Assembly: GCA_963767835.1 (NCBI GenBank)
Contig: CAVYFY010000029.1
Location: 40,871 to 104,870, forward strand
DNA from: an uncultured Planctomycetota bacterium
Lineage (GTDB): Bacteria; Planctomycetota; Planctomycetia; Gemmatales; Gemmataceae
Length of the DNA stretch: 64,000 nucleotides
Direction: 5' to 3'
Below the pieces are notes generated by a model that searched no databases, was not told where the DNA came from, and saw only the letters and a program-made list of their open reading frames with translations. How positions within the stretch are numbered: the first letter of the stretch is position 1; each line of letters starts with the position of its first letter. Position numbers and translations under genes: made by a program. This document shows positions 9,994-58,146 of the stretch, piece by piece.

Positions 9994-10103
9994 GGGCTAG
10001 GGGTTAGGGGTTAGACCTAATCCCCAACCCCTAATCTCTAGCCCCTGCATGATTAGGGGTTAGGAGTTAGACCCTAATCCCCAATCCCTAGCCCCTGCAT
10101 GAG
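9982..10103. repeat. tandem duplicated unit of inverted TTAGGGG-like heptamer arrays (G-rich then C-rich) ending at the RBS of the next gene
   Basis: ggggctaggggttaggggttag ... ctaatccccaacccctaatctctagcccctgcatga, then a second shorter copy ending ...tagcccctgcatgaGGAGAGGcaaATG. Confidence 0.8.
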
Positions 10104-10112
10104 GAGAGGCAA

Positions 10113-11615
10113 ATGACGCGCGAAACCAAGATTGGGTTGCTCGTGGCCGGTTCGTTTCTGTGTCTGGTTGCCGTGGTCGTGGCGTCGAAGTGGCGTGGCG
10201 GCGATGGCGGCGATGCGGAAGAGCAGACGGTTGCCCCTGGCGCGGTCTTGCACCCGACGCAGAATTCGCCGGATGCGAAACCAAAGGGGGAAGTACCGCC
10301 TCCGAAGTCCGCTGCCGTGGCCGCCGCGCAGGCGAAGGGCAAGGAGACGAAGAAAGAACTAACGCAAGAGGACGGCAAGCAGAAGGGTTTGCCGGGATTG
10401 TATATCGCCCCGGCGGCGACGCAGACGGAAGAAGCCGCCATCGAAAAGGATTTGGAACAGAAGCGTCTGGAGGCTCTTGCCAAGAAGATCGAGGAGGAAA
10501 AGAAGCGGCCCGAGGACGTGGGCACTCTGCCGGCATTGCCGGCGCAAGGCGAACCGGGAGTGCTGCCGGCATTGCCGAAGGCGGAGGTTGGCGCATTGCC
10601 GCCGTTGCCGAAGGCGGAGTTAGGCGCGTTGCCGCCTTTGCCGAACGCGGAAGTGGGTAAGTCGCCACAGGAGCAAGCTCTGGTCCCAGCGCCGACGCCA
10701 GAAGATTCGAAGACGCAGACGAAACGGGCCAAGGAGGGCGAAAAAAAGGCGGCGCAGGGAGGGATCGGCAGCGTGGAGATGCAACCGGTCAAGCCGTTCA
10801 ATGATAAGACGCCGCCGATGCCCGATTTGCCGAAGCCGGCGCCATTTGATCCGGTCGGAGGCGTGATCCCGGCGAAGCAGATCGACCCAGCGCCCGCGCC
10901 GAAGGGGCCCACGTTCGGTCAGTTGGAACCGTTGCCTGAGCCGACCAAGCCGGTCATTCCGTTTAGCGACCCGAAACCGCCGCCGCCGCTGCCCCCGGCC
11001 GCAATCAAGGAGCCCGGCCCGATCGCCGTGATTCCACCGACGGGAGGCACGCTGCTGCCGGCGCCGCCGATCATTGTCGGAGGCGGTCGTCACCCGTTGC
11101 CCGCGGTCAAGGATGTCAACATCGATGCTTACGAGTGCCAAAAAGGGGACAACACCTTCGATATCTTGAGCCTGCGCATGTACGGCACCGAAAAATATGC
11201 CGACGCGCTGTTGAAATACAATCGCGATCACAGCGGTATGGTCAAAAATGGCTCCACCCTCAACGTCAATCCGCCGATCCTGAATCCTGGGCAGCAAGTG
11301 CTCAAGCCGCCGCAGACGATCCTCGATAGCGATTATCGCTCCTTGGTTCGGAGCGCAACGCCGCAAGTGAGGATGGACGCGCCGACGCCGTTGACGCAGC
11401 CGCCCGGGCCGATCGCCAAAGTCTCCAATCCGCCGCGCCCCGGCCCTGGCGGCACCTACACCGTGCAGAACCCGGCCGGCGAAAGCATCCTCGACATCGC
11501 CGAGCGCGCGCTGGGCGACCGCAGCCAATGGCCCCGCATTTACAGCGCCAACCCGAATTACCCCCCGCAAAACCGCATCCCCGCCGGCACCACGCTGACG
11601 CTGCCGAGCAACTGA
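10113..11615 (+). CDS. membrane-anchored Pro-rich protein with two C-terminal LysM-like domains and 4x 11-aa tandem repeat
   Basis: N-terminal TM helix, coiled-coil KDLEQKRLEALAKKIEEEKK, and the repeat LPALPKAEVGA x4 at 10540-10660. LysM-like YECQKGDNTFDILSL and YTVQNPAGESILDIAERALGD. Confidence 0.7.
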   Translation: MTRETKIGLLVAGSFLCLVAVVVASKWRGGDGGDAEEQTVAPGAVLHPTQNSPDAKPKGEVPPPKSAAVAAAQAKGKETKKELTQEDGKQKGLPGLYIAPAATQTEEAAIEKDLEQKRLEALAKKIEEEKKRPEDVGTLPALPAQGEPGVLPALPKAEVGALPPLPKAELGALPPLPNAEVGKSPQEQALVPAPTPEDSKTQTKRAKEGEKKAAQGGIGSVEMQPVKPFNDKTPPMPDLPKPAPFDPVGGVIPAKQIDPAPAPKGPTFGQLEPLPEPTKPVIPFSDPKPPPPLPPAAIKEPGPIAVIPPTGGTLLPAPPIIVGGGRHPLPAVKDVNIDAYECQKGDNTFDILSLRMYGTEKYADALLKYNRDHSGMVKNGSTLNVNPPILNPGQQVLKPPQTILDSDYRSLVRSATPQVRMDAPTPLTQPPGPIAKVSNPPRPGPGGTYTVQNPAGESILDIAERALGDRSQWPRIYSANPNYPPQNRIPAGTTLTLPSN

Positions 11616-13750: not shown

Positions 13751-15717
13751 ATCGGGTAGGAGGGGGAATTACTTCCCCCGTCCTCCCACACCACCGGACG
13801 TACTTTGCGTATCCGGCGGTTTCTGTTCTTGTTGATACCGGTCATACAGCTGGCTGAGGTTGGCCAAGCCCAAAGACTCGATCCAAGTCTGATTCATGGC
13901 GGTGTTGACGGCCGGACACGCCGACAGATGCCACCACCCCTTGTTCGACCCGGCGGTCATCCGCGCGTGGCGGACTGGAACGCCGTGGCTTTGCAAGAAG
14001 GCCGCGATCGTTCTGGTCCGTTTCAGTTGCTTCAACCGCACGCAGCGCAGCTTCCGACGAATCCAACTGTCCAATTCACGCAGCAAGGTCTTGCACTTCG
14101 CAAAACGGAAGTACGCGATCCAGCCCGTGAGAAAACTGTTGAGTTCGCCGGCCATCTCCTCGATTTCGATGCCTCGATTTCGACGAGTGATCTGCCGAAT
14201 GCGTTCCTTGACGCGTTCCTCACTCTTGGGCGCTGACTCCCAACTCCCCGCCGCGCAGAAGACGATAGCCGAGAAACTTGCGGTCCTCGACGTGTGCCAC
14301 GGCACTCTTCTCCCGATTGACGCGGAGCCGAAGTTTCCCTTCCAAGAACGCTGTCACCGACGCCAGCACCCGCTCGCCCGCTGCCTTCGACCGCATGTAG
14401 ATGTTGCAGTCGTCGGCATAGCGGCAGAAGCAGTGGCCACGCCGTTCCAGTTCCTTGTCCAGGTCGTCCAACAGCAGGTTCGCCAAGAGCGGCGAAAGCG
14501 GTCCGCCTTGCGGGGTCCCCTCGTGCCGAGCGACACACACGCCGTCTTGCATCATGCCCGCTTCCAGGAAGCGGCGAATGATCTTGAGCAGACGCTTGTC
14601 GCCGACACGCCGGGCCAATCGCGCCATCAGGATGTCATGGTTCACCCGGTCGAAGAATTTCTCCAGGTCCATGTCCACCACGATGGTTCGGCCCTCGGCC
14701 ACATACTCTTTCGCCTTGGCCAGAGCGGTGAATGCTCCGCGTCCCTTGCGAAAGCCATGGCTCGATGCCGAAAAGGTCGGGTCCAGAAGCGGGTCCAAAA
14801 CTTGCAGGATCGCCTGCTGCACCAAGCGGTCTACCACCGTCGGAATGCCCAACTGTCGCACTCCTCCGCCGGCCTTCGGGATTTGCACCCCGCGGATCGG
14901 CGACGGTTGATAACTCCCGTCGAGCAGCGAATCGGTGAATCCTTGCAGATGCTTGCGAACCCAGGGCAACAGTTCGCTGACGGTCATCCCGTCCACGCCT
15001 GCTGATCCTTTGTTCGCCCGCACGCGGTCAATTGCTTCGATCAAGTTCTGGGTCCGGGTCACCTCCTCCATCAGTCGGTCCGGCAAGGCACGTGCTTGGC
15101 CCGACGCCGCAGACGCTTGTGACTCCACGCACCCACCAGCTTCGGTCCCGCCGTCGCCAGTTGAGCCGGGGCGCAGCTCCTCCGCCTGCTCCGTAAACAG
15201 GAGCGTTTGGTAGTAGCTGCCTTGCTGTCGCTTCACGTCCATCGAGTCGTTCCAGACGGTCGCTTGCAAGAATAGATTCAGCCCTTCATCCGCTCTTGCG
15301 AGGCGGTTGGCCTCCCCGACGTGTGTTGCCCGCGCAGGATGGCACATCGCCGAACGAGCGGGTTACTACGGCCTCTGCTGACTTCTCCCTGGTCCATCCC
15401 ACGACGTTGCCGCCGCAGTAGTCCGGATCGACCGGACGGACGGGGAGATCTCCCAGGGTAAGTTGTGCATCCTTCGCTCGGTCTTCGCCGGATTTACCCG
15501 CGTCGCCTACGGAATGGCTATCAGGCGTCCCCGTCTCATGCCGGGTTACCCAACGACGCTGGCCTTGTATCCGATTTCTGTTCGTCGAATCCGAGTTGGG
15601 GGCATCGGCTTTCTTCAGATTCCGCCTCGCGACGGACACCCTTGCCTAGCCTTGCGGTTCGGGCCATCACCGCCCGCAGAGGACTTGCACCTCCTGAGAC
15701 ACAACATACCTGTGCAC
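13751..15717 (-). mobile_element. group II intron (IIC-like features), boundaries approximate within about 30 nt
   Basis: Encodes an RT/maturase. Putative domain V (accgccggatacgcaaagtacgtccggtggt, with a CGC triad) at 13796-13830 and domain VI with a bulged A at 13755-13789. A 5' GUGCA lies 6 nt after a hairpin at 15712-15717. Confidence 0.6.
13769..15071 (-). CDS. group II intron-encoded reverse transcriptase/maturase (IEP); frame break near 14225-14300
   Basis: RT motifs NKGSAGVDG, RQLGIPTVVDRLVQQA, FRKGRGAFTA, CFCRYADDCNIY; X/maturase domain IRRKLRCVRLKQLKRTRT...GWWHLS. Start taken at MEEVTRTQNL. The ORF tail reads through DV/DVI, so the true stop is uncertain. Confidence 0.75.
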
Positions 15718-18009: not shown

Positions 18010-19292
18010 ATGAAGACGCGCACAGTAAAAACCTGGCTTCTGTGGATCCTTGCGGGCCTACTCGGGCCGGTTTGCGGGTGCGCGACTCATTTAGCAGGCA
18101 CGCCGAATCTTTTGCAGCATCAGGATCCGCAGCAGGTCTACGCCGATTGCCCGGCCGATTGGCAATCTTCCGATGCGGCCGTGATTTATGCGACTGATCG
18201 GGCGGTCGTCGATCCGGCGCGAAGCAGCCGAGCTATGGATTCGGCCGGACGCCGAGCCTGACCTTTGGTGTTGCCGATGTCGCGTTGAATCCACAGCCGA
18301 GCTGGAAGGAATTGACGCAGGACAGCACGACGGCCCGGCGCAGCCGGGAATACGAGTTGAAGGTAGCGAGCGTCCGTGCCGACGGACAAATCCAGCCGCT
18401 GGTCGAGCAGGCGATGCTGAGCGGGCAGGGCGGATCGATCGTGCAAGCCGCCGCGCTGGAGGACCAAGCGGCGGCCGAGCGTCTGCACGCGCTTCTGCGC
18501 CAGCGGATTGCGCCGACCTCGCACAAGGATGTCTTCATCTTCGTGCATGGCTTCAATTGCACGTTTGACGATTCGGTATTCCGGGCCGCGGAGATCTGGC
18601 ATTTTATGGGGCGCGTCGGCGTTCCCGTCGCTTATTCCTGGCCGGCCGGGTTCGGTGGACTACGTAGTTATCCCTACGACCGCGAATCGGGCGAATACAC
18701 CATCACGCATCTGCGGCACTTCATCAAAGCCGTCGCCGAGTGTCCCGGCGTGGAGCGCGTGCACCTGATCGCCCATAGCCGCGGCTGCGATGTGGCGATG
18801 TCGGCCCTGCGTGAGCTGAATCTTGAAATCACGGCCCAACGCAGATCAACGCGGCGGGAACTCAAGCTCGAGAACTTGGTATTGGCCGCTCCGGACGTGG
18901 ACGAGGAGGTGTTCTTACAGCGGTTTGTGGCGGAGAACCTGCTGCAAGCCGCCCGGCGGACGACGATTTACGTTTCACCAAACGACAAGGCGATCGAGCT
19001 TTCCGGCGCCGTGTTCGCCAGCCGGCGCATGGGGGCGTTAGGCGTCAAGGATCTCAGCCCGAAGATCAAGGAAAGCCTGGCCAGGATGCCGAACGTGCAG
19101 TTCATCGAGTGCAATGTCTCGGGGCTCGCGGAGACACACAATTATGTCTTCACGCACCCGGCCGCCCTGTCGGACTTGATTCTCGTCCTGCGCGACCGCC
19201 GCGATCCAGGCGCCGCCAACGGCCGGCCATTGCGGCAACCGAGCGAAGGCGTCTGGGAATTGACCGACGATTATCTCGTGAAAAGCCGTTGA
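18010..19292 (+). CDS. lipoprotein alpha/beta hydrolase of the DUF900 family; frame break near 18200-18235
   Basis: Lipobox LLGPVCGC; IYATDRAVVD, then in the next frame SYGFGRTPSLTFGVADVAL...IFVHGFNCTFDDS...IAHSRGC. Confidence 0.65.
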
Positions 19293-19296
19293 ATCT

Positions 19297-19425
19297 GAAA
19301 TTTAGCCACGGATGAAACACCGATGAAACACCGATGGGAGGAGAATTCAGCTTTCCGGGAATCCTGTCACTCTCTGTCATCCTTGTTTGATCTGTGTTCC
19401 ATCAGTGGCTAAATTTAGACTTACG
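19297..19425. repeat. R4 MITE-like element, copy 1 (about 130 bp with 40-45 bp terminal inverted repeats) filling the spacer between convergent stop codons
   Basis: aaatttagccacggatgaaacaccgatgaaacaccgatggg ... ccttgtttgatctgtgttccatcagtggctaaattt. Confidence 0.8.
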
Positions 19426-22913: not shown

Positions 22914-22944
22914 ATACGCTGGGCTCGTGCCCACGAGATTGTTG

Positions 22945-25900
22945 ATGCAACGTTATTTCCTGATTCTGTTGATTCTTGCTGTGACTCCGCCGCACGTCTC
23001 CGCGCAAGGCCTCAAGGTCCCGCCTGGCTTCGAGGTCGTCGAGTTCGCCGACGGCAAGCTCGCCAACGATATCCATGTCATGACCGTCGATCCAAAGGGC
23101 CGCGTTATCGTGGCGGCGCGCGGCTACATCCGCATCCTCGTCGATGACGACGGCGACGGCAAAGCGGATCGCGCCCTTGAATTCGCGTCCACGCCCAAGG
23201 ACGGCGCCATGGGCCTCTTGTGGGAAGGCGACTCCCTTTATGTCACGGGCGACGGCGGTTTGCGGCGCTTCACCTCGAAGACCGGCGACAAGGCCGACGG
23301 GCCTTCCGAACTGATTCGCGCCATGAAGACCGGCGGTGAGCATTCCTCCCATGCGATTCAGCGCGGCCCCGACGGGTGGCTTTACGTTCTGTGCGGCAAC
23401 AACGCCGGCATCGACAAATCCTACGCCGATTCGCCGACCTCGCCGATCAAGGAACCGATCGCCGGCTGCGTGTTACGATTTCCACCTAGCTCCCCTCGCC
23501 CCACCGGGGGAGAGGGGCTGGGGGTGAGGGGGGCGTCATGCGAGATCGTCGCCCACGGCTTTCGCAATCCGTACGGCTTCGATTTCAATCTCGATGGCGA
23601 TCTCTTCACCTTCGATTCCGACAACGAGCGCTGCGTCAGTTTGCCGTGGTATGAGCCGACGCGGTTCTATCACGTTATCGAGGGCCGGCATTACGGCTGG
23701 CTCAATCCGCAAAGGGCCGCGTTTTGGCGTCGTCCCCCGTATTTCTGCGATGTGGTCGCGCCGATTGCCACGCTGGGCCGCGGTTCGCCGACCGGCGTTG
23801 CCTGCTATCGGCACAACCAGTTTCCGCCCGAATATCACGGCGGCTTCTTCCTGTGCGACTGGACCTTCGGCAAAATCCACTTCGCCACGCTCAAACGCAA
23901 GAACGCCTCCTACACCGCCGACACGCGCGTCTTCCTCGAAACGCTCGGCGACAACGGCTTCGCGCCCACCGCATGCGCCGTCGATCCGAAGACTGGCGAT
24001 CTCTATGTCTCGATCGGCGGTCGGGGCACGCGCGGCGCAGTCTATCGCATCCGGCATCCGGAGCGGTTCAAGGCACTGCAAGGCAAGCTCGCGCCACTGC
24101 CGATGGCGAAACGATCGCTGGAATGGCGCGATGGGTTGGAAGACGTGATCGACAAGAAAGCGACCTCAAAATCGGCAAGCGATCGTCTCTGGGCAATGCA
24201 AATGACACGCCGACATTTTCTAAAGATCAAGCCGCCCGTCATAGATACGTTGTACAAATACGCGCAACTCAACTACGACCATGAAGATTCGGCAGTGCGG
24301 CAGGCAGCGCTTGATGTCATGGAGCGCTTTTCGCGCGAGTTGCTGGCAGGGCAACTTGGCTCGGAAAAGCTCGACTACGCCTTTTCCGTGGCGTATGGGG
24401 CAGGCAAAATTCGCACCAAGCAGGATGGCGAAGATGTGATCGGAGCGATGCTCAGCAGCAAGTCCCGTGGCCTTCGCCTCGACGGAGTGCGCCTTCTTCA
24501 GCGTGGCCTCGGCGACATCGGCGCTGCTAAAGAATCAATCGGCACCATTTGGGAAGGTTATACTGCGCGGAAGGGAATGAGAATCCTCGATCCGACGCCA
24601 ACCCTGTCCCGTTTTTTTCCGAGCAACGATCCCGACCTCGACCGTGAAATCGCGCGCACCCTTGCAATGATTGAGCATGACGACGCAAAGGTACGCTCGC
24701 GTTTCCTCGCCAAGTGCAGCGCCGATTCCAATCCGATCGACGATATTCACTATCTGGCCTGTTACGCCCGCCTCGCGGGCCAACGCGCCGACAAGGAAGC
24801 AACACTCGTCGCGGCCACACTGCTCGATCTCGATCGCAAGATTGCTGCCCGTAAGCTAAATCGCGACTCGAATTGGCCGTTGCGCATGCGCGAGCTCTAC
24901 GTTGGCCTTGCTCAGAAGGATGCGCGGCTGCACGTGGCGATGGTCGCGCATGCGGCGTTTGGCCGGCCCGATCATGCGCTCTTTGCGAGCACCGCCGGGT
25001 TTCCCAAGGAACGTGCTGCCCGCATTTTTCTGGATCGTTGGCAACGCAATAAGGATTATGCTTTGTCCGGCACTATCGTGCAATTGTTCGACGCGCTTCC
25101 CGCAGATGACGTGCTGCCGACTATCCGCAAAGGCTGGGGTGAAACCGGCCAGGACTCGGCGTTTTTACCGCTGCTGGCGAAGAAGCCCGTGATGGAAGAT
25201 CGCGGCAAATTCATCGACGGGCTCAACTCGCCGCAGTCCGCCATTCTCGACGCCTGCGTGCGCGGTCTTGAACCAGCTCGACGCGAAAAGCGAACGCCGC
25301 CGAATCGTTCGCCTTGATTCGCGCCTTGCATCGCACTTCGGACAAAGCAATCGGCCACGCGCAAATTGCTCGTCGGCCGGCTTGAGAAAACCACCGGCCA
25401 GGCCTTCGGCGCTCGACAGCAAGCGCTGGATCGCCTGGCTCGAAAAGCAGCATCCCGAGTTCGGCAAACGTCTGGCGAATCCCGACGGCGTCGATGTCGC
25501 CAAGTGGGACCAGCGCCTTGCCAAGCTCGATTGGGATCGGGGCAATGCCGTCACGGGCAAGACCGTCTTCAGCAAGGCGAGTTGCCTCAACTGCCATTCC
25601 GGCTCGCAAGCGCTCGGCCCCGATTTGGCCGGCGTCGCCAATCGCTTCTCGCGTGCCGACCTCATGACCGCGATCTTGCAGCCGTCCAAGGACGTGCCGG
25701 CCCGCTATCAGACGACGCTGGTCGAAACGCAGGACGGCAAAACATATCAAGGCATCGTCATCTACGACGCCGTGGACAGCCTGATCCTGCAAACGGGCGC
25801 CGCCACAACGATCCGCCTCGACGCTGCCAAGATCGTCAGCCGCCAGGCCAGCGCCCAATCGCTGATGCCCGCGGGATTGCTCGATCCGCTTGCCGACCAG

Positions 25901-26029: not shown

Positions 26030-27587
26030 TCAGTGATCCATACGCTCAATCACCGCCATCTCGCACACTCCCAGCGGCTTGCGATCCACCATGCGCAAGT
26101 GCGGCGGCAGATGCAATTTCAACGTGTCAGGTGAATTGCGATGCCCGAACAGCACCACCGTACGCGGCTGCTGATCCAGCGCTTGCACCAACTCCTCAAG
26201 TTGCTTGCTGCGATAGGTGCGGAAGTCGGCTCGGCCCAGATAAAACGCCACCGAATCGACATTGCGCGGAAAGCATGCAACCGGAGTTTCCGCATTGCAA
26301 GCCGCACGCAACTCCTCAAGGCGGTCGATCCCAGAGCGTTGGCGGGCGTAATGCGGGATTACGAGATAATGCGAGCACGCCAGCATTAGCCAACACGCCG
26401 CGACGAGGCCGATCGTCCAGCGCGATCGGCAAAGATCGGTGCGGGCGATGAAACAGCCCAGCGCCAGGCACAGCGGCGGAAACGCGGGCAAGATGTACGT
26501 CGGCAGCTTGCTTCCCGCCAGCGAGAAAAAGAGGACGCACCAAAGCCCGGCGAGCAGGAGATAACCCATCGCCTGGCAGCGCCGGTTGATGTCGGCGGCG
26601 TTGGTCGAAGTAAAGAAACGCGCAGCGTGGCCATGCCAGCAAGATCGTGGGCAGCAATCCGAACAGCACAATCGGCGCATAGAACCAGACGGGCCGAATG
26701 TGATCGAATGGCTCGACGAAGCGTTCGACGTTGTGCTGCCAAAGGAAATAGCGCACGAATTCCGGCCGCTGCCAGCAAACGACCGCGTACCAGGGAAGAT
26801 TGATTATAAGGACACTCGCGTAGAAGCCGAGCCACGCCCGCCAGGAGATCGGCGCCCCAGATACAAGCCGGCGTTGTATCCAAAGCGGAGGCAATATCAG
26901 CAAAACAGCGACGGGGCCTTTCGTCAGCACGCCCAGAGCGCACGCAAGTGCCGCCAGGCACCACCATTTCCAATGCAAGCGTTTCTCGGCCTGGGCCAGA
27001 TACGCCGCCAGCAGTCCGAGCGTGATCCACAGCGTCAATAAGCCATCTAGCACGAGCAGCCGGCCGACGCCGAGAAAGATCGGCGACACCGTCAAAAACA
27101 GCGCACCCCAGAACGCCGACCGCGCGCCGACAATGCGCCGGCCCAAAAAATACGTCGACAGAACGCTCGCATGCATCGCCAGCGCCGGGATCAATCGGGC
27201 GGCACCGGCAGAATAGCCGAAGATCGAATACGACAGCATGACGAGCCAGTAGAACAGCGGCGGCTTGTCGAGATACGGTTCCCCTTGCAGCGTCGGTACG
27301 ATCCACTCGCGGGCCGTCAACATCTCACGCGGAATCTGGGCGTAGCGCCCTTCATCCGGTTCGAACAGAGGAAACGACATGCACGGATAGAGCAAAACGC
27401 CGGACACGAGAAAGATGAACACGCTCGGCCCCGCCCGCAATGGCTCGACCCGAGCCGCCGGCCCGGCGAACCAGACGCGCGTCCAGAGCATCGGCAGCCA
27501 GCCGAGCAAATGCGTCGGCGTCTCGACCGTGGCAATCTTGACCGCGACCGTCGGCGGCATGCGTGTGGTTGTTTCTGTTTCTTGCAT
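26030..27587 (-). CDS. glycosyltransferase family 39 (ArnT/PMT-like, dolichyl/undecaprenyl-phosphate sugar transferase); frame break near 26620-26680
   Basis: FPLFEPDEGRYAQIPREML, LDKPPLFYW, about 10 TM helices. The C-terminal part continues in ORF 26030..26680. Confidence 0.65.
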
Positions 27588-27697
27588 CCCGCCAAAGGTG
27601 CCACAAATCGGCGTGGCGTGTCAATGCGGGATCTTGTGAATCGCTGCCGACTCGGGTACATTACCATCATCCGCATTCCCGCCAGGAGATTCCCTTC

Positions 27698-30123
27698 ATG
27701 TTTCGTTTGCCACTTCCATTCCTAGCATGCGCACTGTTGCCCGGTATCCTCGTCGCGCAGCCGCCGAGGAAGATCGAGTTCAATCGCGATATTCGGCCCA
27801 TTCTCTCGAATCATTGCTTCGTGTGCCACGGCCCGGACAACAACCTGCGCAAGGCGAAGTTGCGGCTCGATGATGAGAAAGACGCTCACAAGAAGGTGAT
27901 CGTTAAGGGGGACGCGCTCGCCAGCGAAATGTTTCGCCGGCTGGTGACGGACGATCCCGATGAGAAGATGCCGCCGCCGCGAACGAAGAAGGAGCTGACG
28001 AAAAAAGAGATCGAGTTGATTCACGCCTGGATCGAGCAAGGGGCTAAATACGAGGCGCACTGGTCGTTGATCGCGCCGCGCCAGCACGAGCTGCCGAAGG
28101 TGAAGAATATCGACTGGGTGCGCAACGACATTGATCGCTTCGTGCTCGCTCGGCTGGAGGCGGAGGGTTTGCAGCCGGCGCCAGAAGCGGATCGCCGCAC
28201 GTTGATCCGCCGGCTGTCGTTCGATCTGATCGGCCTGCCGCCGACGCCGGAGCAGGTCGATGCGTTTCTGGCCGACAAGGACGCCGATGCTTATGAAAAA
28301 GTCGTCAATCGCTTGCTCCGGTCGAAGCATTTCGGCGAGCGCATGGCGGTTCACTGGCTCGACATCGTACGCTACGCCGACAGCGCCGGCTATCACAGCG
28401 ACAACGAGCGCAGCGTTTGGCTTTACCGCGATTGGGTGATCGACGCGTTCAATTCGAACCTGCCGTTTCGCGAATTCGCCATTGAGCAGATCGCGGGCGA
28501 TTTGCTGCCGAAGGCGACGGCCGAGCAAAAAATCGCCTCGGGGCATAATCGGCTCTTGCAGACGACGGAGGAGGGGGCGCCCAGGCGAAGGAATACACGG
28601 CGAAGTACGCCGCCGACCGCGTGCGCAATTTTTCGACCGCCTGGCTCGGCCTGACCCTGGGCTGCACCGAATGCCACGATCACAAGTACGATCCGTTCAC
28701 GACCAAGGAGTTCTACAAGCTCGCCGCGTTTTTCGCCGACATCCAGGAAGCGCCGATCGGCCGGCAGGCGCAGACGCCGATCATGACCGGCGCCCAGCAA
28801 GAGCAAGCGAAAAAGCTCGACGAGCAAATCGCGGCGCTGCAAAAGGAAATCGCCACGCTGCCGAAGGAGGAAGCGAAGGCGGTCCAGGCGAAGCTCACGG
28901 CGGTGCAGAAGGAGAAGGCGGAGTTCACCAAGAAGCTCCCGTCCACGCTGATCTCGACCGCTAGCACGCCGCGCATCGTCCGCATTCTAAAGCGTGGCAA
29001 CTGGCTCGATGAATCGGGCGAGATCGTGGTCCCCGACGTGCCCGCGGCGTTGCCGGCGCTCTTTCCCCCCTCTCCCTCCGGGAGAGGGGCCGGGGGTGAG
29101 GGCGGAAGTGCCAAAAATCCGAATGCTCCACCCTCACCCCCTTCCCCTCTCCCGGGGGGAGAGGGGAGAAAAGGCAAACGCCCGACTCGTCTCGATCTCG
29201 CGAACTGGCTCGTGGATGCCGACAATCCGTTGCCCGCGCGAATCTTCGTCAATCGGCTTTGGCTGCTCTATTTCGGCCAGGGCATCGTCAAGACCGCGGA
29301 CGATTTCGGCGCTCTCGGAGCATGGCCGACCCATCCGGAATTACTCGATTGGCTCGCCCTCGATTTCCAGCAACACGGCGGCGACATCAAGCGCTCCATC
29401 AAGCAAATCGTCATGTCCGCGGCCTATCGCCAATCCTCCAAGGGAACGCCGGAGCTTCGGCAACGCGATCCGTACAACCAGTTCCTCGCTCGCCAGGGCC
29501 GCTTCCGCCTCGATGCCGAATTCGTGCGCGACAATGCCCTGGCGATCAGCGGCCTTTTGGTCTCGAAGATCGGCGGCCCGAGCGTCAAGCCGTACCAGCC
29601 AGCGGGCTACTGGCGCTACCTCAATTTCCCGACACGCGAATGGGCCAACGACAAGGGCGAAAACCAGTATCGCCGCGGCGTCTACACGCACTGGCAACGC
29701 ACTTTCCTGCAGCCGAGCTTGCTGGCGTTCGACGCCTCGACGCGCGAGGAATGCACCGTCGAGCGCCCGCGCTCGAACACGCCGCAGCAAGCGCTGGTGC
29801 TCTTGAACGATCCGACCTACGTGGAAGCATCGCGCGTCTTCGCCGAGAAGATCGCCAAATCGCCCGGCAAAACCGCCGAGCGCATCAACTTCGCCTTCCG
29901 CCTGGCGTTGCAAAGGGACGCGGACGCCGACGAGATCGCCATTCTGACGAAGCTATACGAGAAACATCGGACGCATTTCGATGCGAACCCCAAGGACGCG
30001 CTGGCGATCCTCGGCGTCGGCTATGCGCCGGCATCGAAGCAAATTGCGCCGGCCGAACTGGCGGCCTGGACCTCGGTGGCGCGGACGGTCTTGAACCTGC
30101 ACGAGACGATCACGAGAAACTAA
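27698..30123 (+). CDS. PSCyt1/PSCyt2(DUF1549)/PSD1(DUF1553) planctomycete cytochrome c protein; frame break near 28560-28625
   Basis: Signal peptide; CFVCHGPD; DUF1549 DRFVLARLEAEGL...HWLDIVRYADS; LGLTLGCTECHDHKYDP; DUF1553 LANWLVDADNPL...FDASTREECTVERP. Confidence 0.75.
29065..29168. repeat. R1 composite palindrome (two inverted units plus spacer), in frame inside the PSD1 CDS
   Basis: cccctctccctccgggagaggggccgggggtgaggg ...27 bp... ccctcacccccttcccctctcccggggggagagggg, encoding PPSPSGRGAGGEGGSAKNPNAPPSPPSPLPGGEG. Confidence 0.85.
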
Positions 30124-33198: not shown

Positions 33199-33347
33199 CG
33201 GAATCGCTGCGATCGTCATTGCCTTCCCATTTTCACGGAAATCTGAATTCGCATTTGCCGACCGTGCTGATTGCGACGACCTTTCCGTTCGATCCATAGC
33301 GATGGGACAGGATGTCACCGGCCCGAAACCGTGGAAATGGAGTTCTC

Positions 33348-34238
33348 ATGCGTCGGAAGGCATGGCTCGCCGTCGTACTGATTGCCGTTCTGCTTCCGCA
33401 ATCGGCGCAGGCCCAGGAAAAAGACGGCTTCAGCCTGATGGGGTTCATCGATTCCCTTCAGCTCGGCTGGCGGCCCGAACCGCACGAGACGGAGCCGTTC
33501 AATCAGCCGATCGCCATGAACGGCAATTGCATCCTCAACTATTATCAGACTGACGCGGTCATGATGCATCGCTCGTCCGGCTCATTCGGCGGCGATATGG
33601 ATTGGTCGGTCGGCCCCCGTCTGATTCTGGGCCGAGGCATGAGCGATCGCGACGCCGTCGAAGTCGGCTACTTCGCCCAGTACCAGATGAACGGCTCCAT
33701 CTTCAATGCCGGCGGCACTCCGCTCAATTTTCGCGAGGATTATCGCTCGGAATTCAACAGCTTCGAGCTCAATTATCGCCATTGGTTCTTGCCGGAATTC
33801 TCGGTGATCGCCGGCTTTCGCTACATCAACTGGCACGAAGATCTCAATGCCGCGTTTGACACGCCGCCCGGCTCGGTCAACGCCATCGATCACACCAACA
33901 ACAACCTGTTCGGCGGCCAGATCGGCGGCGATTGGAAGCATTCCTTTGGCAACGGCTTCGGCCTCGAACTCAGCGGCAAGGCGGGCATCTACGGCAACCG
34001 CTGCGAATCGGACGGCACGCTCGGAACCGCCGGCAGCACGCGGGCATCCTTCGTCGGCGAACTCGGTTTAGTCGGCACCTACAACCTGACGGGGTATTTG
34101 AAAGCCCGGGCCGGCTACGAGGTGATGTGGGTCGAAGGTCTCGCGTTGGCGCCGGACCAGATCAGCGCCCCCAGCATCAACAATCGCGGCGGCGTCTTCC
34201 TGCACGGCGCGGTCGTCGGGTTGGAACTCAGCTGGTGA
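33348..34238 (+). CDS. outer-membrane beta-barrel protein (planctomycete BBP7-like)
   Basis: Signal peptide MRRKAWLAVVLIAVLLPQSAQA, alternating amphipathic strands, C-terminal ...GLELSW aromatic terminus. Confidence 0.55.
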   Translation: MRRKAWLAVVLIAVLLPQSAQAQEKDGFSLMGFIDSLQLGWRPEPHETEPFNQPIAMNGNCILNYYQTDAVMMHRSSGSFGGDMDWSVGPRLILGRGMSDRDAVEVGYFAQYQMNGSIFNAGGTPLNFREDYRSEFNSFELNYRHWFLPEFSVIAGFRYINWHEDLNAAFDTPPGSVNAIDHTNNNLFGGQIGGDWKHSFGNGFGLELSGKAGIYGNRCESDGTLGTAGSTRASFVGELGLVGTYNLTGYLKARAGYEVMWVEGLALAPDQISAPSINNRGGVFLHGAVVGLELSW

Positions 34239-34250
34239 GGCGGCATTTCC

Positions 34251-34352
34251 TCCCCTCTCCCTCCGGGAGAGGGGCCGGGGGTGAGGGCGTTTGGCATCAT
34301 TTTTAGCGAGCCACTCCCTCACCCCCAGCCCCTCTCCCGGAGGGAGAAGGGA
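34251..34352. repeat. R1 composite palindrome, intergenic copy
   Basis: cccctctccctccgggagaggggccgggggtgaggg ...spacer... ccctcacccccagcccctctcccggagggagaaggga. Confidence 0.85.
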
Positions 34353-34406
34353 GCGAAGATTCCTGGCATTTCATAAAATCACACCAACGCCCGCCGGGGA
34401 ACCACT

Positions 34407-36679
34407 ATGCCGCGCATCATCTGCGTTCTCGCGCTCGCACTCGCTTTGACGAACCTTGCCGCCGCCCAGGATCATGGCCGGGTGCTCTCGTGCGCTCTGG
34501 ATGTCTATCCGCACAAGCTCAACGACACCACCGATCTCGCGGATACGAAGAATTATGTATTCCGCGGCAAGGTCATTAGCCTCGGCAAGGACAAGAAGGT
34601 CCACATCTGCTACGACACCGAGCACATGCGCGTCGCCGGCGCCTGGGTCGGCAAACCGATCCAATTCACCGCCGACAAGAACATGGGCTCCACCGTCGAG
34701 GGCGAAATGCTCTTCTCGACGAAGCCCGGCCCAGGCTGGGCCAAGGACGGTAAATGGGACGACTCGCGCGTCGGCAAGGAAGGGCCATTGCCGCGCGATT
34801 GGGCCCATTACAAGGGGCTGTATCTGCACGGCGACAAGGTGGTGCTGTCGTACACCGTCGGCGATATGGATGTGCTGGAGATGCCGGACGTCATGGCTCT
34901 CACGCCCTCACGCGGACGTTCAGCTTGGGCCCCAAGCAAAAGCGCTCAATCGCTCACAATCGCGGAATGGGAGAAGCCGTGGAAGTCCGACATGGTTTCC
35001 AAGGAGCCTGGTCGAGCCATAGAGTTCTGCGAGCTACATTCCGGTTTACCAACGGAAATTCATCGGCCTCATTGGGTTAAGGGAAAGGCATCGTTCCGCG
35101 TCGAGGCAAGCGTAAGGTCATGCTTGATCTTGAGCCTATGCCGGATGGGCAGCTGTTTCAAAGTTTTTGTTAGCCTCGATTAACTTTCGTATTACCGATT
35201 TCTTGCTGGCACGCGGCGGTGATATCGAGAAATTTGGCTGCTCTAACGAAAGGCGGCCCCGCGCATTGGCCAGAAACGCTCGAAACCGCCGGTACGCTCG
35301 GCGACAACAAGGTCGGCCCCTACACGCTCGATCAGATTGCGCTTCCCGAGAAGAATCCCTGGGACGCGTCGATTCGCTTTGCCGGGCTTGATTTCTTTGA
35401 GGATGGCCGGGCCGCGTTGTGCACGTGGGATGGCGATGTCTGGATCGTCTCCGGGCTGGATGCCGGCCTCAAGAAGGTCCGCTGGAGACGCTTCGCCGCC
35501 GGGCTGCAGCAGCCGCTCGGCCTCAAGATCATCAAGGGGATCATCCACGTTGCCGGCCGCGATCAAATCACGAAGCTGCACGATCTGAACAACGACGGCG
35601 AGGCCGACTTCTACGAGAATTTCAACAACGATGCGGGCCTCACCTTGCAGCGGCACGAGTTCGTCATGGATTTGCAAACGGACAAGAACGGGAATTTGTA
35701 CTATTGCCGCAGCGGGCATTATCTCCAGTCGAAGCGCGGCGACAACTGCGTCGTCTACAAGCTCTCACCCGACGGCAAGAAGCTCGAAAAGTTCGCGACC
35801 GGCTTCCGCGAACCGAACGGCATGTCGATCGGCCCCGACGGCACGATGACCGTCGCCGACAACGAAGGCAACGGCATCCCGCAAACGCCGATCTATCGCT
35901 TGCTGCAAGGCAAGGATTACGGCTTCACGCCATCGAATACCGGCAAGGTCAACGACGGCACGTGGAAGATGCGTGAGCGGCCGATTGTTTGGCTCGGCCC
36001 CAAGGTGGACACGTCGGCCGGCAGCCAGGTTTGGGTTCCCCGGCGAGCCGAGCCCCGTAAGGGGCCGGTTCACGCGGGCGATAACCGGGTCCTTACGGAC
36101 CTCGGCTCGCCGGCATGGGGCCCGCTCGCCGGCAAATTGCTGCATACCAGCTACGGCAATTGCGCCCTCTTTCACCTCATGATCGACAAAACCGCGGAGC
36201 CGTGGCAGGGGGCGGTGTGGAAGTTTCCGCTCACGTTCAACAGCGGCATCATGCGGGCACGCTTCAATCCCAAGGACGGCCAGCTCTACGTCTGCGGCCT
36301 GCGCGGCTGGGGCACCAGTGCGGTCAAGGACGGCCAGTTCGCCCGCGTTCGCTATACGGGAAAAGACGTACCGATCCCGGTCGGCTACCGCGTCACGAAA
36401 GCGGGCCTGGAATTCAGCTTCTCCGGTCCGCTCGACAAGGCCGCCGCCGAGGACGACGACAACTGGGCCGGCAGTTGGTCGGAAGATTTGAAGAAGATGC
36501 CCAACATGAAGGAGATGCCGATCAAGGCGGCGCATCTGAGCGATGACCGCAAAACCGTGACGATCGCGCTGGAGAAGGTGCGCGCCGTGCCGAACTTCGC
36601 GCTGCAATATCGCATCAAGTCGGCGGACGGGGCCAAGGTCACGGGCGAATTAAACGGGACAATCCATCGCGTGCCTTAG
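34407..36679 (+). CDS. secreted beta-propeller-like hypothetical protein, disrupted between about 34880 and 35220 (multiple frames, low-GC segment)
   Basis: N-terminal ORF 34407..35183 and C-terminal ORF 35219..36679 read as parts of one protein (signal peptide; ...NNDGEADFYENF, PDGTMTVADNEGN propeller-like blades). The middle segment changes frame and has atypical composition. Confidence 0.5.
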
Positions 36680-42867: not shown

Positions 42868-43000
42868 ATTCAACGCCTAATCTAGCCACGGATGGAACAC
42901 AGATGAAACACGGATGGGAGAATTTGTAACAGTCCCGATTTCCAAACAGCCAATCCTATCCGTGTTTCATCTGTGTTCCATCCGTGGCTAAATTAAGCGT
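42868..43000. repeat. R4 MITE-like element, copy 2, between the Rieske and cytochrome b genes; its terminal repeat supplies the Rieske stop codon
   Basis: attcaacgcctaatctagccacggatggaacacagatgaaacacggatgg ... ccgtgtttcatctgtgttccatccgtggctaaattaagcgttgg. Confidence 0.8.
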
Positions 43001-43616
43001 TGGCTATCTCCGGTTCGCCGCCGCCGAGCGGGATTTTCTGGGCGTCGTTGGCCTTGTATTTTTTGTAGGTGACTTTAATGCGATTGTGGTCGGGATTGTC
43101 GGGATCGATTTCCCAGGCCAGCGTGTCCATGCCGCGCTGGGCGGGGTTGCCGGCGGCGGCGCGCTTACCGTCAAGCAAAAAGGTGGCGGCATGGCAGGGG
43201 CAGGCAAACCCGGTCGGCCCCGTGTTCACCGAACACCCCAGGTGCGGGCAGATCGTGGTGAAAACCATCAAGTAGGCGCTCTTCTGTTCTTCGGTCAGGT
43301 TGGCGAGATTGGCCGGTTTCGGACCGCGCTGCACCACCCAAACTCGGCCCAGCACGTCATTCGGGTAGAGCGTCCAGCCGTCCATGCGGGTGTCGCGCAC
43401 CACGCCCTGCACCGGCGTGTTGATGGCAAGATCGTCGAGCTTGATCCCCTCGACGAGCCGCATGGCGCTCTTGGGCCCCTTACGATTGCGCGGATCGAGG
43501 AGATAACAAACGATCGGCACGCCGATGATGGCCGAGAAGATGGCGCCGATGCCGAAGATGGCCCAGGCCAACAAGGAACGGCGATGGGGTTGGTCCGCGA
43601 GGAGGTTGTCAGCCAT
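42993..43616 (-). CDS. Rieske [2Fe-2S] iron-sulfur subunit
   Basis: CPHLGC ... CPCH Rieske boxes and an N-terminal TM helix. Confidence 0.8.
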   Translation of the reverse strand: MADNLLADQPHRRSLLAWAIFGIGAIFSAIIGVPIVCYLLDPRNRKGPKSAMRLVEGIKLDDLAINTPVQGVVRDTRMDGWTLYPNDVLGRVWVVQRGPKPANLANLTEEQKSAYLMVFTTICPHLGCSVNTGPTGFACPCHAATFLLDGKRAAAGNPAQRGMDTLAWEIDPDNPDHNRIKVTYKKYKANDAQKIPLGGGEPEIANA

Positions 43617-50486: not shown

Positions 50487-50590
50487 TTAATTCAAAGATT
50501 TAGCCACGGATGGAACACAGATTGAACACGGATGAAAATCCCGGAGCGCATGCCAGGTTCTTGCCATCCGTGTTCAATCTGTACTACAAA
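50487..50590. repeat. R4 MITE-like element, copy 3 (right arm truncated/degenerate)
   Basis: atttagccacggatggaacacagattgaacacggatg ... catccgtgttcaatctgtactaca. Confidence 0.7.
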
Positions 50591-55617: not shown

Positions 55618-58146
55618 ATGAGAAAATTCCTGTTGCTCGCCGTTGGCCTGGCATTCCTGAGAATCAATTCGGCCACCTTCGCGCAGCCCGCGAAAAGGCC
55701 CCCCGAACCGGTCGGCGCCGATCATGCTGAGAAGATGGTCAAGGGGCTCGACCTTTTCAAAAAGCACGTCAAGCCGATCTTCGAATCGAAGTGCCTGCGC
55801 TGTCACGGCGGCAAGAAGATCGAATCCGATTTCGATCTCAGCGACCGCGAAGGATTGCTCAAGGGCGGCCAGATCGGCAACTCCGTCGTCCCCGGCAAAA
55901 GCAAGGAAAGCCAGCTCGTCAAGCTCATCACGCATGCCAAAGAACCGCACATGCCGCACGATGGCGTGAAGCTGCCCGACGCGGCGATTGCGCGCATCGT
56001 CGAATGGATCGATCTGGGGGCGCCTTACGACAATCCGCTGGTGGCGTCGAAGCTCAAGGGGAAATCGTGGACCGAGCGCACACTTCCGGCGAGCGCCAAG
56101 CAATGGTGGGCGTTCGAGCCGCTCGTCACGGCCGATCCGCCCGCGGTCATGAACGGCGCCTGGTGCAAGACGCCGATTGATCGCTTCATCCTGGCCAAGC
56201 TGGAGGACGCCAAAATCACGCCGAATTCGCCAGCGAGCCGGCAGCAGTTAATTCGCCGGGCGTATTTCGACCTGATCGGCCTGCCGCCGACGCCGGAAGA
56301 GGTGCAAGCATTTGTCAACGATTCTGCTACGCACCAAGCGGCATGGGAGAAGGTGATCGACAAGCTGCTTGCCAGTCCGCATTACGGCGAACGCTGGGGT
56401 CGGCACTGGCTTGACCTGGCCCGTTTTGCCGAGAGCCACGGTTTCGAGCACGATACCGATCGGCCGACCGCGTATCACTATCGCGATTTCGTCATCGAGG
56501 CGCTCAACCAGGATTTGCCGTTCGACACCTTCGTCAAGTGGCAGATCGCCGGCGATGAATTTGCGCCGAACAATCCGCTCGCCGTCAAGGCGACCGGCTT
56601 CCTCGCGGCCGGCGTTCATTCGACGCAGATCACCAAGAGCGAAGTCGAGAAGCACCGCTACGACGAGATGGACGACAAGCTCAACACTGTCAGCACCGCG
56701 TTCCTCGGCCTGACCGTCGGTTGTGCTCGCTGCCACGATCACAAGTACGACCCGATCCCGCAGCGCGATTATTATCGGATGCTGGCGACGTTCACGACGA
56801 CGGTGCGCAGCGAGGTCGAGGTCAAGCCGGCGCCTACGGAACATGCCAAAGCGAAGGCGGCGTTCGACGTGGCGCATCAACAGCTGGTGCAAAAAGCGGA
56901 GCAAAATGCCAGGGAACAATTGCCTGCGAAGCTGGCGGATTGGGAGAAGGGCGCCGGTGCCAAGGCGAAGATTCCGGCCAACGTCGTCGCCGTATTGAAG
57001 ATTCCGGTCGAGGAGCGCAAGCCGGAACAGCAGGCGGAATTGCTCAAATGGTATCGCACGATCGATCCGGAAGCGAAAAAACTCGATCAGCAGATTCAAG
57101 CGCACGCCAAGCAAGCGCCGCCGATTCCGAAAATGCTCATCGCCACCGAAGGCTTGCCGGCAGTTCGGCTGTTCACGCAGGGGGACGATTTCTTCCCCGA
57201 GACCTACTTCCTGCGCCGCGGCGATCCCGCCAACAAGGAAGGCGCCGCAAAGCAGAGCTTTCTGCAAGTGCTGATGCCGACGCCCGATGCCCAGAAGCGC
57301 TGGCAGACCGCGCCGCCGCCGGGATGGCGCACCTCGTATCGGCGCCGGGCGTTCGCCGATTGGCTCACCGATGTCGATCACGGCGCCGGCCGACTGTTGG
57401 CGCGCGTCATCGTCAATCGCCTCTGGCAGCATCACCTGGGCCGCGGCATCGTTGCCACGCCGAGCGATTTCGGCATCCGCGGCGATCGGCCCACGCATCC
57501 GGAATTGCTCGATCACCTTGCCGACGAACTGATCAAAAGCGGCTGGAAATTGAAAGCCATCCACAAGCAGATCATGCTCAGCGCCGTCTATCAGGAAAGC
57601 ACGCTAGTGGACGAGGCCAAGGTCAAGCTCGACCGCGACAACAAGCTTTACTGGCGGCAACCGGCGCGCCGCCTCGAAGCCGAGATCATCCGCGACGCCA
57701 TCCTCAGCGTCAGCGGCGAACTCGATCCGAAGATGTTCGGCCCCGGCACGCTCGATGAAAAGAGCAAACGCCGCAGCATTTACTTCACGGTCAAACGCTC
57801 GAAACTGATGCCGATGATGGTGATCTTCGACGCCCCGGAAGCCTTGAGCGGCATGGCCGAGCGTCCGACCACGACGATCGCGCCGCAAGCTCTGCACATG
57901 CTCAACAACCCGCAAGTCCGGCAAGCCGCTAAGGGTTTCGCCCGGCGCATCGCTCCCAATCCGACCACGTCGCTGGAGGACGCGGTCCGCACCGGCTACC
58001 AGATCGCCGTCGCCCGCCAGCCCGACCGCGATGAATTGGCCGACGGGGTCGCGTTTCATCCGGACACAGATGGCGACCTATCCGGAGAACCAGCGCCGCG
58101 AGTCTGCGTTGGCGGATTTCTGCCAGGTGCTGATGTGTTTGAATGA
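55618..58146 (+). CDS. PSCyt1/PSCyt2(DUF1549)/PSD1(DUF1553) planctomycete cytochrome c protein, intact
   Basis: Signal peptide, CLRCHGG, DUF1549 and DUF1553 blocks colinear with 27698..30123 but without the R1 insert. Confidence 0.8.
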   Translation: MRKFLLLAVGLAFLRINSATFAQPAKRPPEPVGADHAEKMVKGLDLFKKHVKPIFESKCLRCHGGKKIESDFDLSDREGLLKGGQIGNSVVPGKSKESQLVKLITHAKEPHMPHDGVKLPDAAIARIVEWIDLGAPYDNPLVASKLKGKSWTERTLPASAKQWWAFEPLVTADPPAVMNGAWCKTPIDRFILAKLEDAKITPNSPASRQQLIRRAYFDLIGLPPTPEEVQAFVNDSATHQAAWEKVIDKLLASPHYGERWGRHWLDLARFAESHGFEHDTDRPTAYHYRDFVIEALNQDLPFDTFVKWQIAGDEFAPNNPLAVKATGFLAAGVHSTQITKSEVEKHRYDEMDDKLNTVSTAFLGLTVGCARCHDHKYDPIPQRDYYRMLATFTTTVRSEVEVKPAPTEHAKAKAAFDVAHQQLVQKAEQNAREQLPAKLADWEKGAGAKAKIPANVVAVLKIPVEERKPEQQAELLKWYRTIDPEAKKLDQQIQAHAKQAPPIPKMLIATEGLPAVRLFTQGDDFFPETYFLRRGDPANKEGAAKQSFLQVLMPTPDAQKRWQTAPPPGWRTSYRRRAFADWLTDVDHGAGRLLARVIVNRLWQHHLGRGIVATPSDFGIRGDRPTHPELLDHLADELIKSGWKLKAIHKQIMLSAVYQESTLVDEAKVKLDRDNKLYWRQPARRLEAEIIRDAILSVSGELDPKMFGPGTLDEKSKRRSIYFTVKRSKLMPMMVIFDAPEALSGMAERPTTTIAPQALHMLNNPQVRQAAKGFARRIAPNPTTSLEDAVRTGYQIAVARQPDRDELADGVAFHPDTDGDLSGEPAPRVCVGGFLPGADVFE

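Follow-up and report, generated by a model that had tools for sequence, protein, structure and literature searches.

In-frame BoxC-family repeats in loops of Gemmataceae proteins, and an association of the family with DUF559 nuclease genes elsewhere

The 64-kb stretch of DNA analyzed here (64,000 nucleotides of contig CAVYFY010000029.1, from an uncultured Planctomycetota bacterium of the family Gemmataceae; hereafter the window) contains a G/C-rich palindromic repeat, R1, which occurs inside three unrelated protein-coding genes as well as between genes. The locus raises the question of what R1 is, and how a structure-forming repeat came to be read in frame within proteins. The best overall explanation is probably that the intragenic copies are loop insertions of the BoxC family, and that the inverted pairs are cargo-less relatives of a composite element built around a DUF559 gene.

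Using the GGGAGAGGGGNNGGGGGTGAGGG core with up to three mismatches, we located six R1 units in the window, at 23508 (+), 29080 (+), 29131 (−), 34265 (+), 34316 (−) and 62680 (+), whereas 100 dinucleotide-preserving shuffles yielded no match. As an earlier inspection of the letters alone (the sequence-only reading) had reported, they form two inverted doublets (here ~110 nt) and two single units, and four of the six lie within open reading frames (ORFs) and are read in frame. The intragenic doublet consists of unit A (29062–29106, plus strand; C-block CCCCTCTCCC, loop TCC, G-block GGGAGAGGGG, loop CCG, G-block GGGGTGAGGG), which encodes PSPSGRGAGGEG, and the inverted unit B (29127–29171, minus strand), whose plus strand encodes PPSPPSPLPGGEG. 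These 45-nt arms are 89% complementary, and the spacer between them (29107–29126, plus strand) encodes part of the peptide GSAKNPNA. In the intergenic doublet, unit A (34247–34291, plus strand) begins 12 nt past the stop codon of the ORF at 33312–34238, unit B (34313–34353, minus strand) ends ~55 nt upstream of the ORF at 34407–35183, and the 41-nt arms (34250–34290 and 34313–34353) are 93% complementary. The two single units, both on the plus strand, are located at 23491–23533, with a G-type (mismatch-type) C-block CCCTCGCCC and the peptide SPRPTGGEGLGVRG, and at 62662–62704, a decayed copy with the C-block CCCTCTACC and the peptide PLPQGEGHGVRA. The segments 29062–29104 and 34247–34289 of the two doublets are 95% identical, loops included, which points to a probable recent common origin within the genome; the homology of the two spacers is weak and was not used.

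Both doublets are predicted to fold into hairpins of ~45 bp, as DNA (−46.9 and −48.8 kcal/mol, z = −8.3 and −10.1) and as RNA (−91.5 kcal/mol for the intragenic doublet and −93.6 kcal/mol, z = −9.7 and −10.8). The single units gave no significant structure in the same test (z = −0.34 for the RNA of the unit at 62662). The canonical G-quadruplex motif occurs eight times in the window, and six of these occurrences are R1 units. Folding with the G-quadruplex option placed a quadruplex in the minimum-energy fold of one of the four single units and not in that of the doublet. An Rfam scan of the window at the gathering threshold detected only a group II intron and nothing at the R1 sites, and a phmmer search of 1.8 billion representative sequences with the 42-residue peptide encoded by the doublet returned a single marginal and uninformative match.

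R1 almost certainly belongs to the triplex-motif family known as BoxC, PIT or TM_ECO, here with 10-nt blocks. The family, formerly called BoxC and PIT, was described by Bachellier et al. in the 1990s and by Hoyne & Maher (2000, 2002), and was defined by Holder et al. (2015, PMC4666352) as the TM_ECO pattern CCCTCNCCC N3–6 GGGNGAGGG N3 GGGNGAGGG. Escherichia coli K-12 has 23 copies, CCCTCTCCCTGTGGGAGAGGGCCGGGGTGAGGGC among them, including five inverted pairs, and 3610 copies were counted in 262 proteobacterial genomes (PMC4666352). In the window, the CCCTCNCCC C-block followed by a loop of 3–4 nt is exact in four units and has one mismatch at 62668 (CCCTCTACC) and at 34316 on the minus strand (CCTTCTCCC), while all six units carry the G-blocks in the order GGGAGAGGGG-N3-GGGGTGAGGG. 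The strict published 9-nt regular expression matches none of them because each block is one G (or C) longer; a 10-nt version finds four units, and a relaxed version with one mismatch per block finds all six. TM_ECO and R1 share the three-block sequence, both the T-type and the G-type (mismatch-type) C-blocks, second loops of CCG or TTx, inverted pairs with a 16–28 nt spacer, and presence/absence instability between relatives. The doublet between hrpB and mrcB of E. coli K-12 aligns unit for unit with both doublets of the window. The differences are the block length (9 nt in the published pattern and 10 nt in the window), the setting (intergenic and without mobility genes in K-12, whereas four of the six window units are in ORFs and the family is found beside DUF559 genes elsewhere) and the range, which extends from the surveyed proteobacterial genomes to many further phyla.

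This identity also changes how the unit is understood. When GGGAGAGGGG is aligned by eye against GGGGTGAGGG read 3′→5′, every resulting triad is of an allowed purine-motif kind (G·G:C, A·A:T, T·A:T), according to the scheme of Fig. 2 in PMC4666352, and the E. coli sequence forms such a triplex in vitro, as demonstrated by circular dichroism and nuclear magnetic resonance (PMC4666352). The G-rich tail that the sequence-only reading had placed after a self-complementary stem is accordingly not an appendage but the putative third strand of a purine-motif triplex, and R1 is a member of an already described element (PMC4666352) rather than a novelty of this lineage. The claim of the sequence-only reading that R1 is a dispersed DNA repeat family was borne out; it is not a convergent low-complexity peptide.

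The ORF that contains the doublet at 29062–29171 (28621–30123, plus strand) encodes, according to Pfam, the C-terminal portion of a PSCyt1/PSCyt2/PSD1 protein; the doublet lies a short way upstream of where the PSD1 domain match begins. The N-terminal part of the same gene is the ORF at 27563–28654 (plus strand); a 1-nt loss in the G-run GAGGAGGGGGCGCC at ~28540–28580 (near 28560) divides the coding sequence in two, so that the host is not the single coding sequence originally taken for granted. The unit at 23491 lies in a DUF7133/GSDH-like beta-propeller dehydrogenase gene (22942–25317, plus strand, with an alternative start at 22831; Pfam), where the insert makes up residues 181–199. The C-terminal cytochrome c part of this gene runs on in another frame to ~25945. 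The unit at 62662 lies in an intact histidine kinase gene (61508–63217, plus strand; Pfam), in which the insert corresponds to residues ~387–403 at the start of HATPase_c. Peptides predicted to span junctions between host and R1 sequence include ALFPPSPSGR, GAGGEGGSAK and FPPSSPRPTGGEGLGVR. Relative to orthologues or the family consensus, single frameshifts also occur in the dehydrogenase-like gene (~25300–25400) and in a PSD1 paralogue (~58040–58060), and the public record lists the same shortened ORFs (P0001, P0121). Because three single frameshifts fall in one window, they are probably long-read indel errors and not signs of three pseudogenes.

All three intragenic sites preserve the host frame and encode the predicted peptides (SPRPTGGEGLGVRG, PSPSGRGAGGEG...PPSPPSPLPGGEG and PLPQGEGHGVRA), but the claim that R1 is always in frame largely reflects survivorship. 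An R1 unit has stops in only one of its six frames (GG GGG TGA GGG) and is open in the other five. Staying open is therefore mostly a matter of a length that is a multiple of three, together with selection.

For each host, the majority of orthologues lack the insert, the most distant of those listed among them, in agreement with an insertion rather than an ancestral feature. Consistent with this, the PSD1 paralogue of the window (55618–58146) contains no unit. Several related lineages are nevertheless filled, with the same element at the same codon and in the same frame. This goes part of the way towards the refutation that the sequence-only reading had set for itself, and some copies are therefore old and vertically inherited. 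In the case of PSD1, ~110 of the 119 other orthologues listed have no insert and read ...LPSL-KID-KEK-KRATRLDLANWL, whereas nine bear a GRGAGGEG-type segment at the same place. In a neighbor-joining tree of the closest 61 sequences, every insert-bearing branch (eight orthologues and the window's own protein) is sister to an insert-free sequence. Comparison of syntenic DNA shows that the site is empty in one relative (L122), against which the window has 32 additional codons; a second (L123) has one unit of the window subtype, and a third (L121) has one unit of another subtype, with a G-type arm and a TTG second loop. The orientation and frame are identical in the window, L121 and L123.

The other two hosts show a similar pattern. 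In the dehydrogenase, 107 of the 120 orthologues listed have a short turn, RF-PD-LKK-CEIV, and no insert; a few have whole or decayed R1-type segments, and in three the turn is occupied by a palindromic repeat of another kind. All kinase orthologues listed at ≤~60% identity lack the insert and have a loop of 3–16 residues, mostly 3–5. In the closer clade, some sites are empty and others hold single R1 units, tandem multiples or members of at least two other repeat families. At the DNA level, an empty kinase site (L126) reads GAT CTT CAC GCA ACG CCG, and the window has 16 additional codons relative to it. Both the window and another relative (L125) have 48 additional bases with the derived arm CTCTACC in common, which makes the kinase copy older than their split. 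A fourth host was found among the relatives: the MeaB/ArgK-type GTPase of L122 (4363–5331) has an in-frame unit, LLPSPCGRGAGGEGSF, just upstream of its P-loop, and the orthologue in L123 (3956–4837) does not. The intragenic R1 copies are thus derived insertions of different ages, young in PSD1, intermediate in the dehydrogenase and old in the kinase.

The positions of the inserts are those at which a protein might accommodate extra residues. AlphaFold prediction on the orthologue alignment places the kinase insert in a coil with a mean predicted local distance difference test score (pLDDT) of ~58, between strands 377–382 and 407–410 with pLDDT >90. The dehydrogenase insert forms the turn of a predicted beta-hairpin between strands 174–179 and 200–206, with pLDDT <50 at residues 185–190. 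In the orthologue alignment, the PSD1 insertion site is a variable linker directly before the RLDLANWL motif. Taken together, these features indicate that the R1 inserts are very likely tolerated loop insertions that would be translated as part of the host protein. The same loops have been hit, or have retained repeats, more than once, and the sites behave as recurrent landing pads.

The very same dehydrogenase-like and kinase loops are occupied in other lineages (L127:2186–2314, L128:1514–1645) by another palindromic repeat, CACGCTCCGCGTGA ... TCACGCGGAGCGTG, which is read there as HAPRE..TRSV or HAPREGKHHAERDAY (P0130, P0135, P0139, P0242, P0254, P0261, P0265, P0282, P0294); no copy was found in the window. 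R1 also forms head-to-tail tandem arrays with a period of ~42–45 nt (L050:472–789, L100:1–165), and in the kinase loop of some orthologues (P0253, P0258, P0275) two to four tandem units are translated as repeated SSSSPRSLGEGP.

Beyond the window, an exact 20-base R1 pattern is found at 120 or more loci of species-representative genomes. The matches come from Chloroflexota, Acidobacteriota, Planctomycetota, Armatimonadota, Cyanobacteria, Melainabacteria, Gracilibacteria, Nitrospirota, Gemmatimonadota and Alpha-, Beta- and Gammaproteobacteria, including cultured Pseudomonas, Xanthomonas and Nostoc. The pattern is also present in at least 120 predicted viral contigs of IMG/VR (L129–L248), some of which may include host flanks; the E. 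coli motif, by contrast, has been stated in print to be absent from phages and plasmids. Among the matches listed, the C-block, which the pattern does not specify, accompanies 100 of the 153 units from genomes and 98 of the 138 from viral contigs. Only ~6 of 154 units among those listed across phyla lie in clearly coding-like ORFs, and residence inside genes therefore looks to be a marked habit of this planctomycete clade.

Insertion of palindromes into coding genes has precedents. Intragenic copies of other repetitive extragenic palindromic (REP) families, and the Rickettsia palindromic elements (RPEs; Ogata et al. 2000), are already known. The analogy with RPEs drawn in the sequence-only reading holds for behavior, as both are palindromic selfish repeats that keep the frame of coding genes and add peptides at permissive positions, but would not extend to sequence: RPEs are ~100–150 bp, AT-rich and confined to Rickettsia, whereas an R1 unit is ~36–40 bp, G/C-rich, triplex-capable and pan-bacterial. 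Intragenic GTAG/CGTC REPs (Di Nocera et al. 2013, PMC3733652) resemble R1 in that small palindromes and their dimers encode 20–30 residues in ORFs, with hosts that are often enzymes acting on nucleic acids, such as tRNA synthetases and repair proteins, and sometimes with the same site used in related species; they differ in carrying a GTAG or CGTC tag and in being RAYT-linked, neither of which applies to R1. No description of in-frame intragenic copies of the BoxC/TM family was found in the literature searched. The intragenic, loop-restricted and putatively translated habit in Gemmataceae is, on that search, new for this family.

A possible answer to how the units spread comes from their neighbors. 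When the ORFs near the 120 genome loci listed were clustered, the recurrent nuclease cluster beside R1 was DUF559, a predicted Vsr-like PD-(D/E)xK nuclease domain, and neither a recurrent transposase nor a Y1 transposase was found among the neighbors of the 120 loci listed. The layout unit(+)–DUF559–unit(−) occurs in L004, L098, L015 and L245, and a free-standing DUF559 gene abuts a unit in L015 and in one viral contig. A DUF559-centered contig scan provided 80 metagenome loci, 39 of which have an R1 unit within 150 nt of DUF559, in the (+,−) configuration in 19. The nearest upstream unit is on the plus strand in 23 of 29 cases and the nearest downstream unit on the minus strand in 28 of 33, with median gaps of 29 and 23 nt. 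The density of R1 is 3.05 units/kb within 150 nt of DUF559 and 0.12/kb elsewhere in the same loci (binomial p = 6e-45). Terminal inverted repeats in common with a gene-bearing element, the hallmark of MITEs (miniature inverted-repeat transposable elements), occur at 19 of the 80 DUF559 loci and in L004 and L098.

Free-standing cassettes begin a few codons past the TGA of the upstream unit and extend into the downstream unit. In seven host ORFs, however, the cassette is in frame: leucyl-tRNA synthetase (LeuRS; L098:576–3689), methionyl-tRNA synthetase (MetRS; twice, including L004:1777–4515), a DEAH helicase, two DNA methylases (one N6_N4) and a type I restriction-modification specificity subunit, the remaining loci being L252:1–2265, L253:559–3336, L251:658–3180, L250:1342–2652 and L257:3–803. 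In these proteins Pfam gives only DUF559/MTES_1575 between the host domains, and none of the seven contains a Hint splicing domain. The in-frame cassettes read PSPSGRGAGGEG – DUF559 – PSPPAPLPGGEGS, and the PSD1 doublet of the window reads PSPSGRGAGGEG-GSAKNPNA-PPSPPSPLPGGEG, in the same two frames and with nearly the same peptides; its spacer at 29107–29126 sits where the DUF559 gene stands in full cassettes elsewhere. An inverted doublet is most simply read as a cassette minus its cargo. The cassettes are comparable to inteins and to EDxHD homing endonucleases such as I-Bth0305I (PMC3239194), in which a Vsr-fold endonuclease likewise resides in host genes, mainly of nucleic-acid metabolism, and host function is spared. 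Unlike inteins, they have no Hint or splicing domain and no intron, and the domain stays in the host protein between Pro/Gly-rich R1 peptides.

The unit(+)–gene–unit(−) layout is also seen in E. coli. The DUF559 gene ycjD of strain K-12 ends inside a degenerate unit, with the C-terminus ...RSPSP, and TM_ECO #9 together with a duplicated ycjD 3′ end is located ~170 nt from ycjD (L249, K-12 1349500–1352500). The block of ycjD and TM_ECO #9 lies between fabI and sapF; of 5426 E. coli genomes, 3378 (62%) carry ycjD. Two ycjD-lacking strains were examined (L330, L331); they have the eefRABCD efflux operon at this position and no TM unit (PMC12817139). We rejected these strains as a clean empty site, since the operon in place represents a replacement. 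In the literature mentioning DUF559, no link to BoxC was found.

These observations can be combined into the following scheme. An R1 unit consists of a C-rich block, its G-rich complement and another G-rich block that may fold back on the purine strand, as a purine-motif intrastrand triplex in single-stranded DNA or as a hairpin in RNA, and two inverted units form a long palindrome. Copies that landed inside genes of this Gemmataceae genome would persist only if the added length was a multiple of three, the frame was not the single stop-containing one, and the Pro/Gly/Ser-rich peptide fell within a surface loop or an interdomain linker. Persisting copies would be translated as loop extensions and later decay or be deleted. 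Some loops are occupied repeatedly, by other palindromic repeats as well as by different R1 subtypes. The inverted doublets would most likely be cargo-less (MITE-like) relatives of the unit(+)–DUF559–unit(−) composite, which is itself also found in frame inside genes. The predicted DUF559 endonuclease may introduce the break or nick in DNA by which the units spread. We put forward DUF559-linked mobility as a tentative proposal, about as open to doubt as to belief.

Several points weigh against this scheme. The DUF559 query alignment was built mostly from R1-adjacent copies, and the 80 metagenome loci represent one subfamily. DUF559 lies near only ~3% of a random sample of R1 loci, and no DUF559 gene was found in the 64-kb window or in the Gemmataceae loci examined. 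In the filled-versus-empty comparisons, which involve proteins that are 68–83% identical, no target-site duplication or target motif is legible. Two of the three host genes are frameshifted elsewhere, and their translation is assumed from intact orthologues that carry the insert (P0010, P0014, P0125). For E. coli, it was reported that the TM_ECO triplex was undetected in vivo, that the K-12 copies are "always intergenic" and that no mobility genes are near them (PMC4666352). Finally, the association with DUF559 could equally mean that an endonuclease gene homes into pre-existing doublets, which would leave the spread of the units unexplained.

That last possibility is the likeliest of the alternatives. 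DUF559 would then be a homing endonuclease gene that targets existing R1 doublets as safe sites, and the units would spread by an unrelated process, for which replication or repair template switching at structure-forming DNA and horizontal transfer on phages are candidates. The DUF559 association data apply equally to this model, and Vsr-fold enzymes include proven homing endonucleases of the EDxHD type, e.g. I-Bth0305I (PMC3239194). R1 also occurs in at least 120 predicted viral contigs, and TM elements are associated with local deletion and instability (PMC4666352). However, at the E. coli fabI–sapF locus either both the R1 units and the DUF559 gene are present or both are missing, the LeuRS and MetRS cassettes bear both units at sites where these enzymes normally have none, and the conservation of the unit sequence across phyla is not accounted for. 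We consider this model unlikely.

The composite scheme also has to be set against the best-studied case of mobile palindromic doublets, the REPIN–RAYT system (Bertels & Rainey 2011), with which it shares two inverted units and a short spacer that replicate together, singletons as decay products and a trans-acting nuclease gene flanked by units. If the R1 doublets were themselves REPINs, a RAYT present in single copy (an IS200/IS605-like Y1 transposase), possibly of "class 3", would mobilize them in trans. REPIN anatomy (PMC3337134, PMC3116915) corresponds to that of R1, with an inverted doublet, a short spacer and singletons; class 3 TnpA-Y1 genes are reported mainly from Planctomycetes and Acidobacteria and have atypical flanking structures, and intragenic in-frame REPs are known. 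Nevertheless, neither a GTAG/CGTC head nor a CnGA foot is found beside the six window units or the cross-phylum copies, and the recurrent nuclease neighbor is the PD-(D/E)xK Vsr-like DUF559 in place of the HUH Y1 transposase, which was not seen near the 120 loci listed, the source genome being covered over the 64-kb window. REP families and REPIN units are moreover lineage-specific, whereas the R1 sequence is conserved across many phyla. An origin of R1 as a REPIN is accordingly doubtful, and we regard it as distinctly improbable.

It might instead be supposed that the intragenic segments are selected functional features, either as needed flexible linkers or as mRNA or DNA structures (hairpin, G-quadruplex, triplex) that regulate their hosts. 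The kinase insert has stayed in frame from a time that predates the separation of the L125 lineage, the R1 units account for six of the eight canonical G-quadruplex motifs of the window, and the doublet hairpin in the PSD1 mRNA is very stable (−91.5 kcal/mol). Against such a role, the inserts are patchy among close orthologues, most of which have none, old copies lose their pairing (as in the kinase unit), unrelated repeat families occupy the same loops, and PIT elements have neither promoter nor terminator activity in E. coli (PMC4666352), which makes selection for function very improbable. Assembly error or insertion into dead genes, which would make "in frame" meaningless and could be suspected from the three frameshifted genes and from the G/C homopolymers of R1 where long-read errors concentrate, is scarcely credible, because the same in-frame element recurs at these sites in full-length orthologues from independent assemblies (short-read ones included), the kinase gene has an unbroken ORF, and the flanks of all three sites are stop-free and 75–86% identical to the closest orthologues.

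The window contains other repeats and mobile elements, small structured repeats being unusually abundant in this genome. RNA domains of a group II intron are located at 15349–15636 on the minus strand (Rfam RF02001, 119 bits; RF01998, 43 bits), adjoining an ORF of 375 residues (14220–15347, minus strand), presumably the intron-encoded protein. Another palindromic family, TTTAGCCACGGATGGAACACAGATGAAACACGGATG..., occurs at 19289–19416, 42869–43002 and 50487–50535 as inverted pairs with 49-nt arms that are 94% complementary. At least four more dispersed families, three palindromic and one direct, were found at 3693–3729/43719–43755, 5902–5934/52417–52498, 6349–6416/40572–40645 and 17854–17932/51326–51404/49228–49261. 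A 33-nt unit repeated three times in tandem and a duplicated 50-nt stretch of G/C tracts (GGGGTTAGACCTAATCCCC..., with a G-quadruplex pattern) are located at 10564–10662 and 10007–10106.

In the ~30 years that BoxC/PIT/TM elements have been known, neither a function nor a way of spreading has been assigned to them. We offer the speculative proposal that BoxC/TM units may be the terminal inverted repeats, and at the same time the built-in peptide linkers, of an unrecognized class of mobile elements with DUF559 cargo that sits in frame without splicing (an "intein-less" homing cassette), and that the thousands of orphan doublets and singletons found across bacteria, those in frame in the window among them, may be its cargo-less derivatives. 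In that case the feature recognized by the Vsr-like nuclease could be the G·T or G·A mismatch of the folded unit. If the link to DUF559 is true, the question becomes testable in E. coli K-12, with ycjD and the 23 TM_ECO copies, and a nuclease gene would be living inside essential proteins without an intein, by means of repeats that encode flexible linkers. Independently of that link, structure-forming repeats repeatedly remodel the same surface loops of conserved Gemmataceae proteins. The consequences include variation in protein length, annotation noise in the form of Pro/Gly-rich "low-complexity" segments, and very stable hairpins in coding mRNAs.

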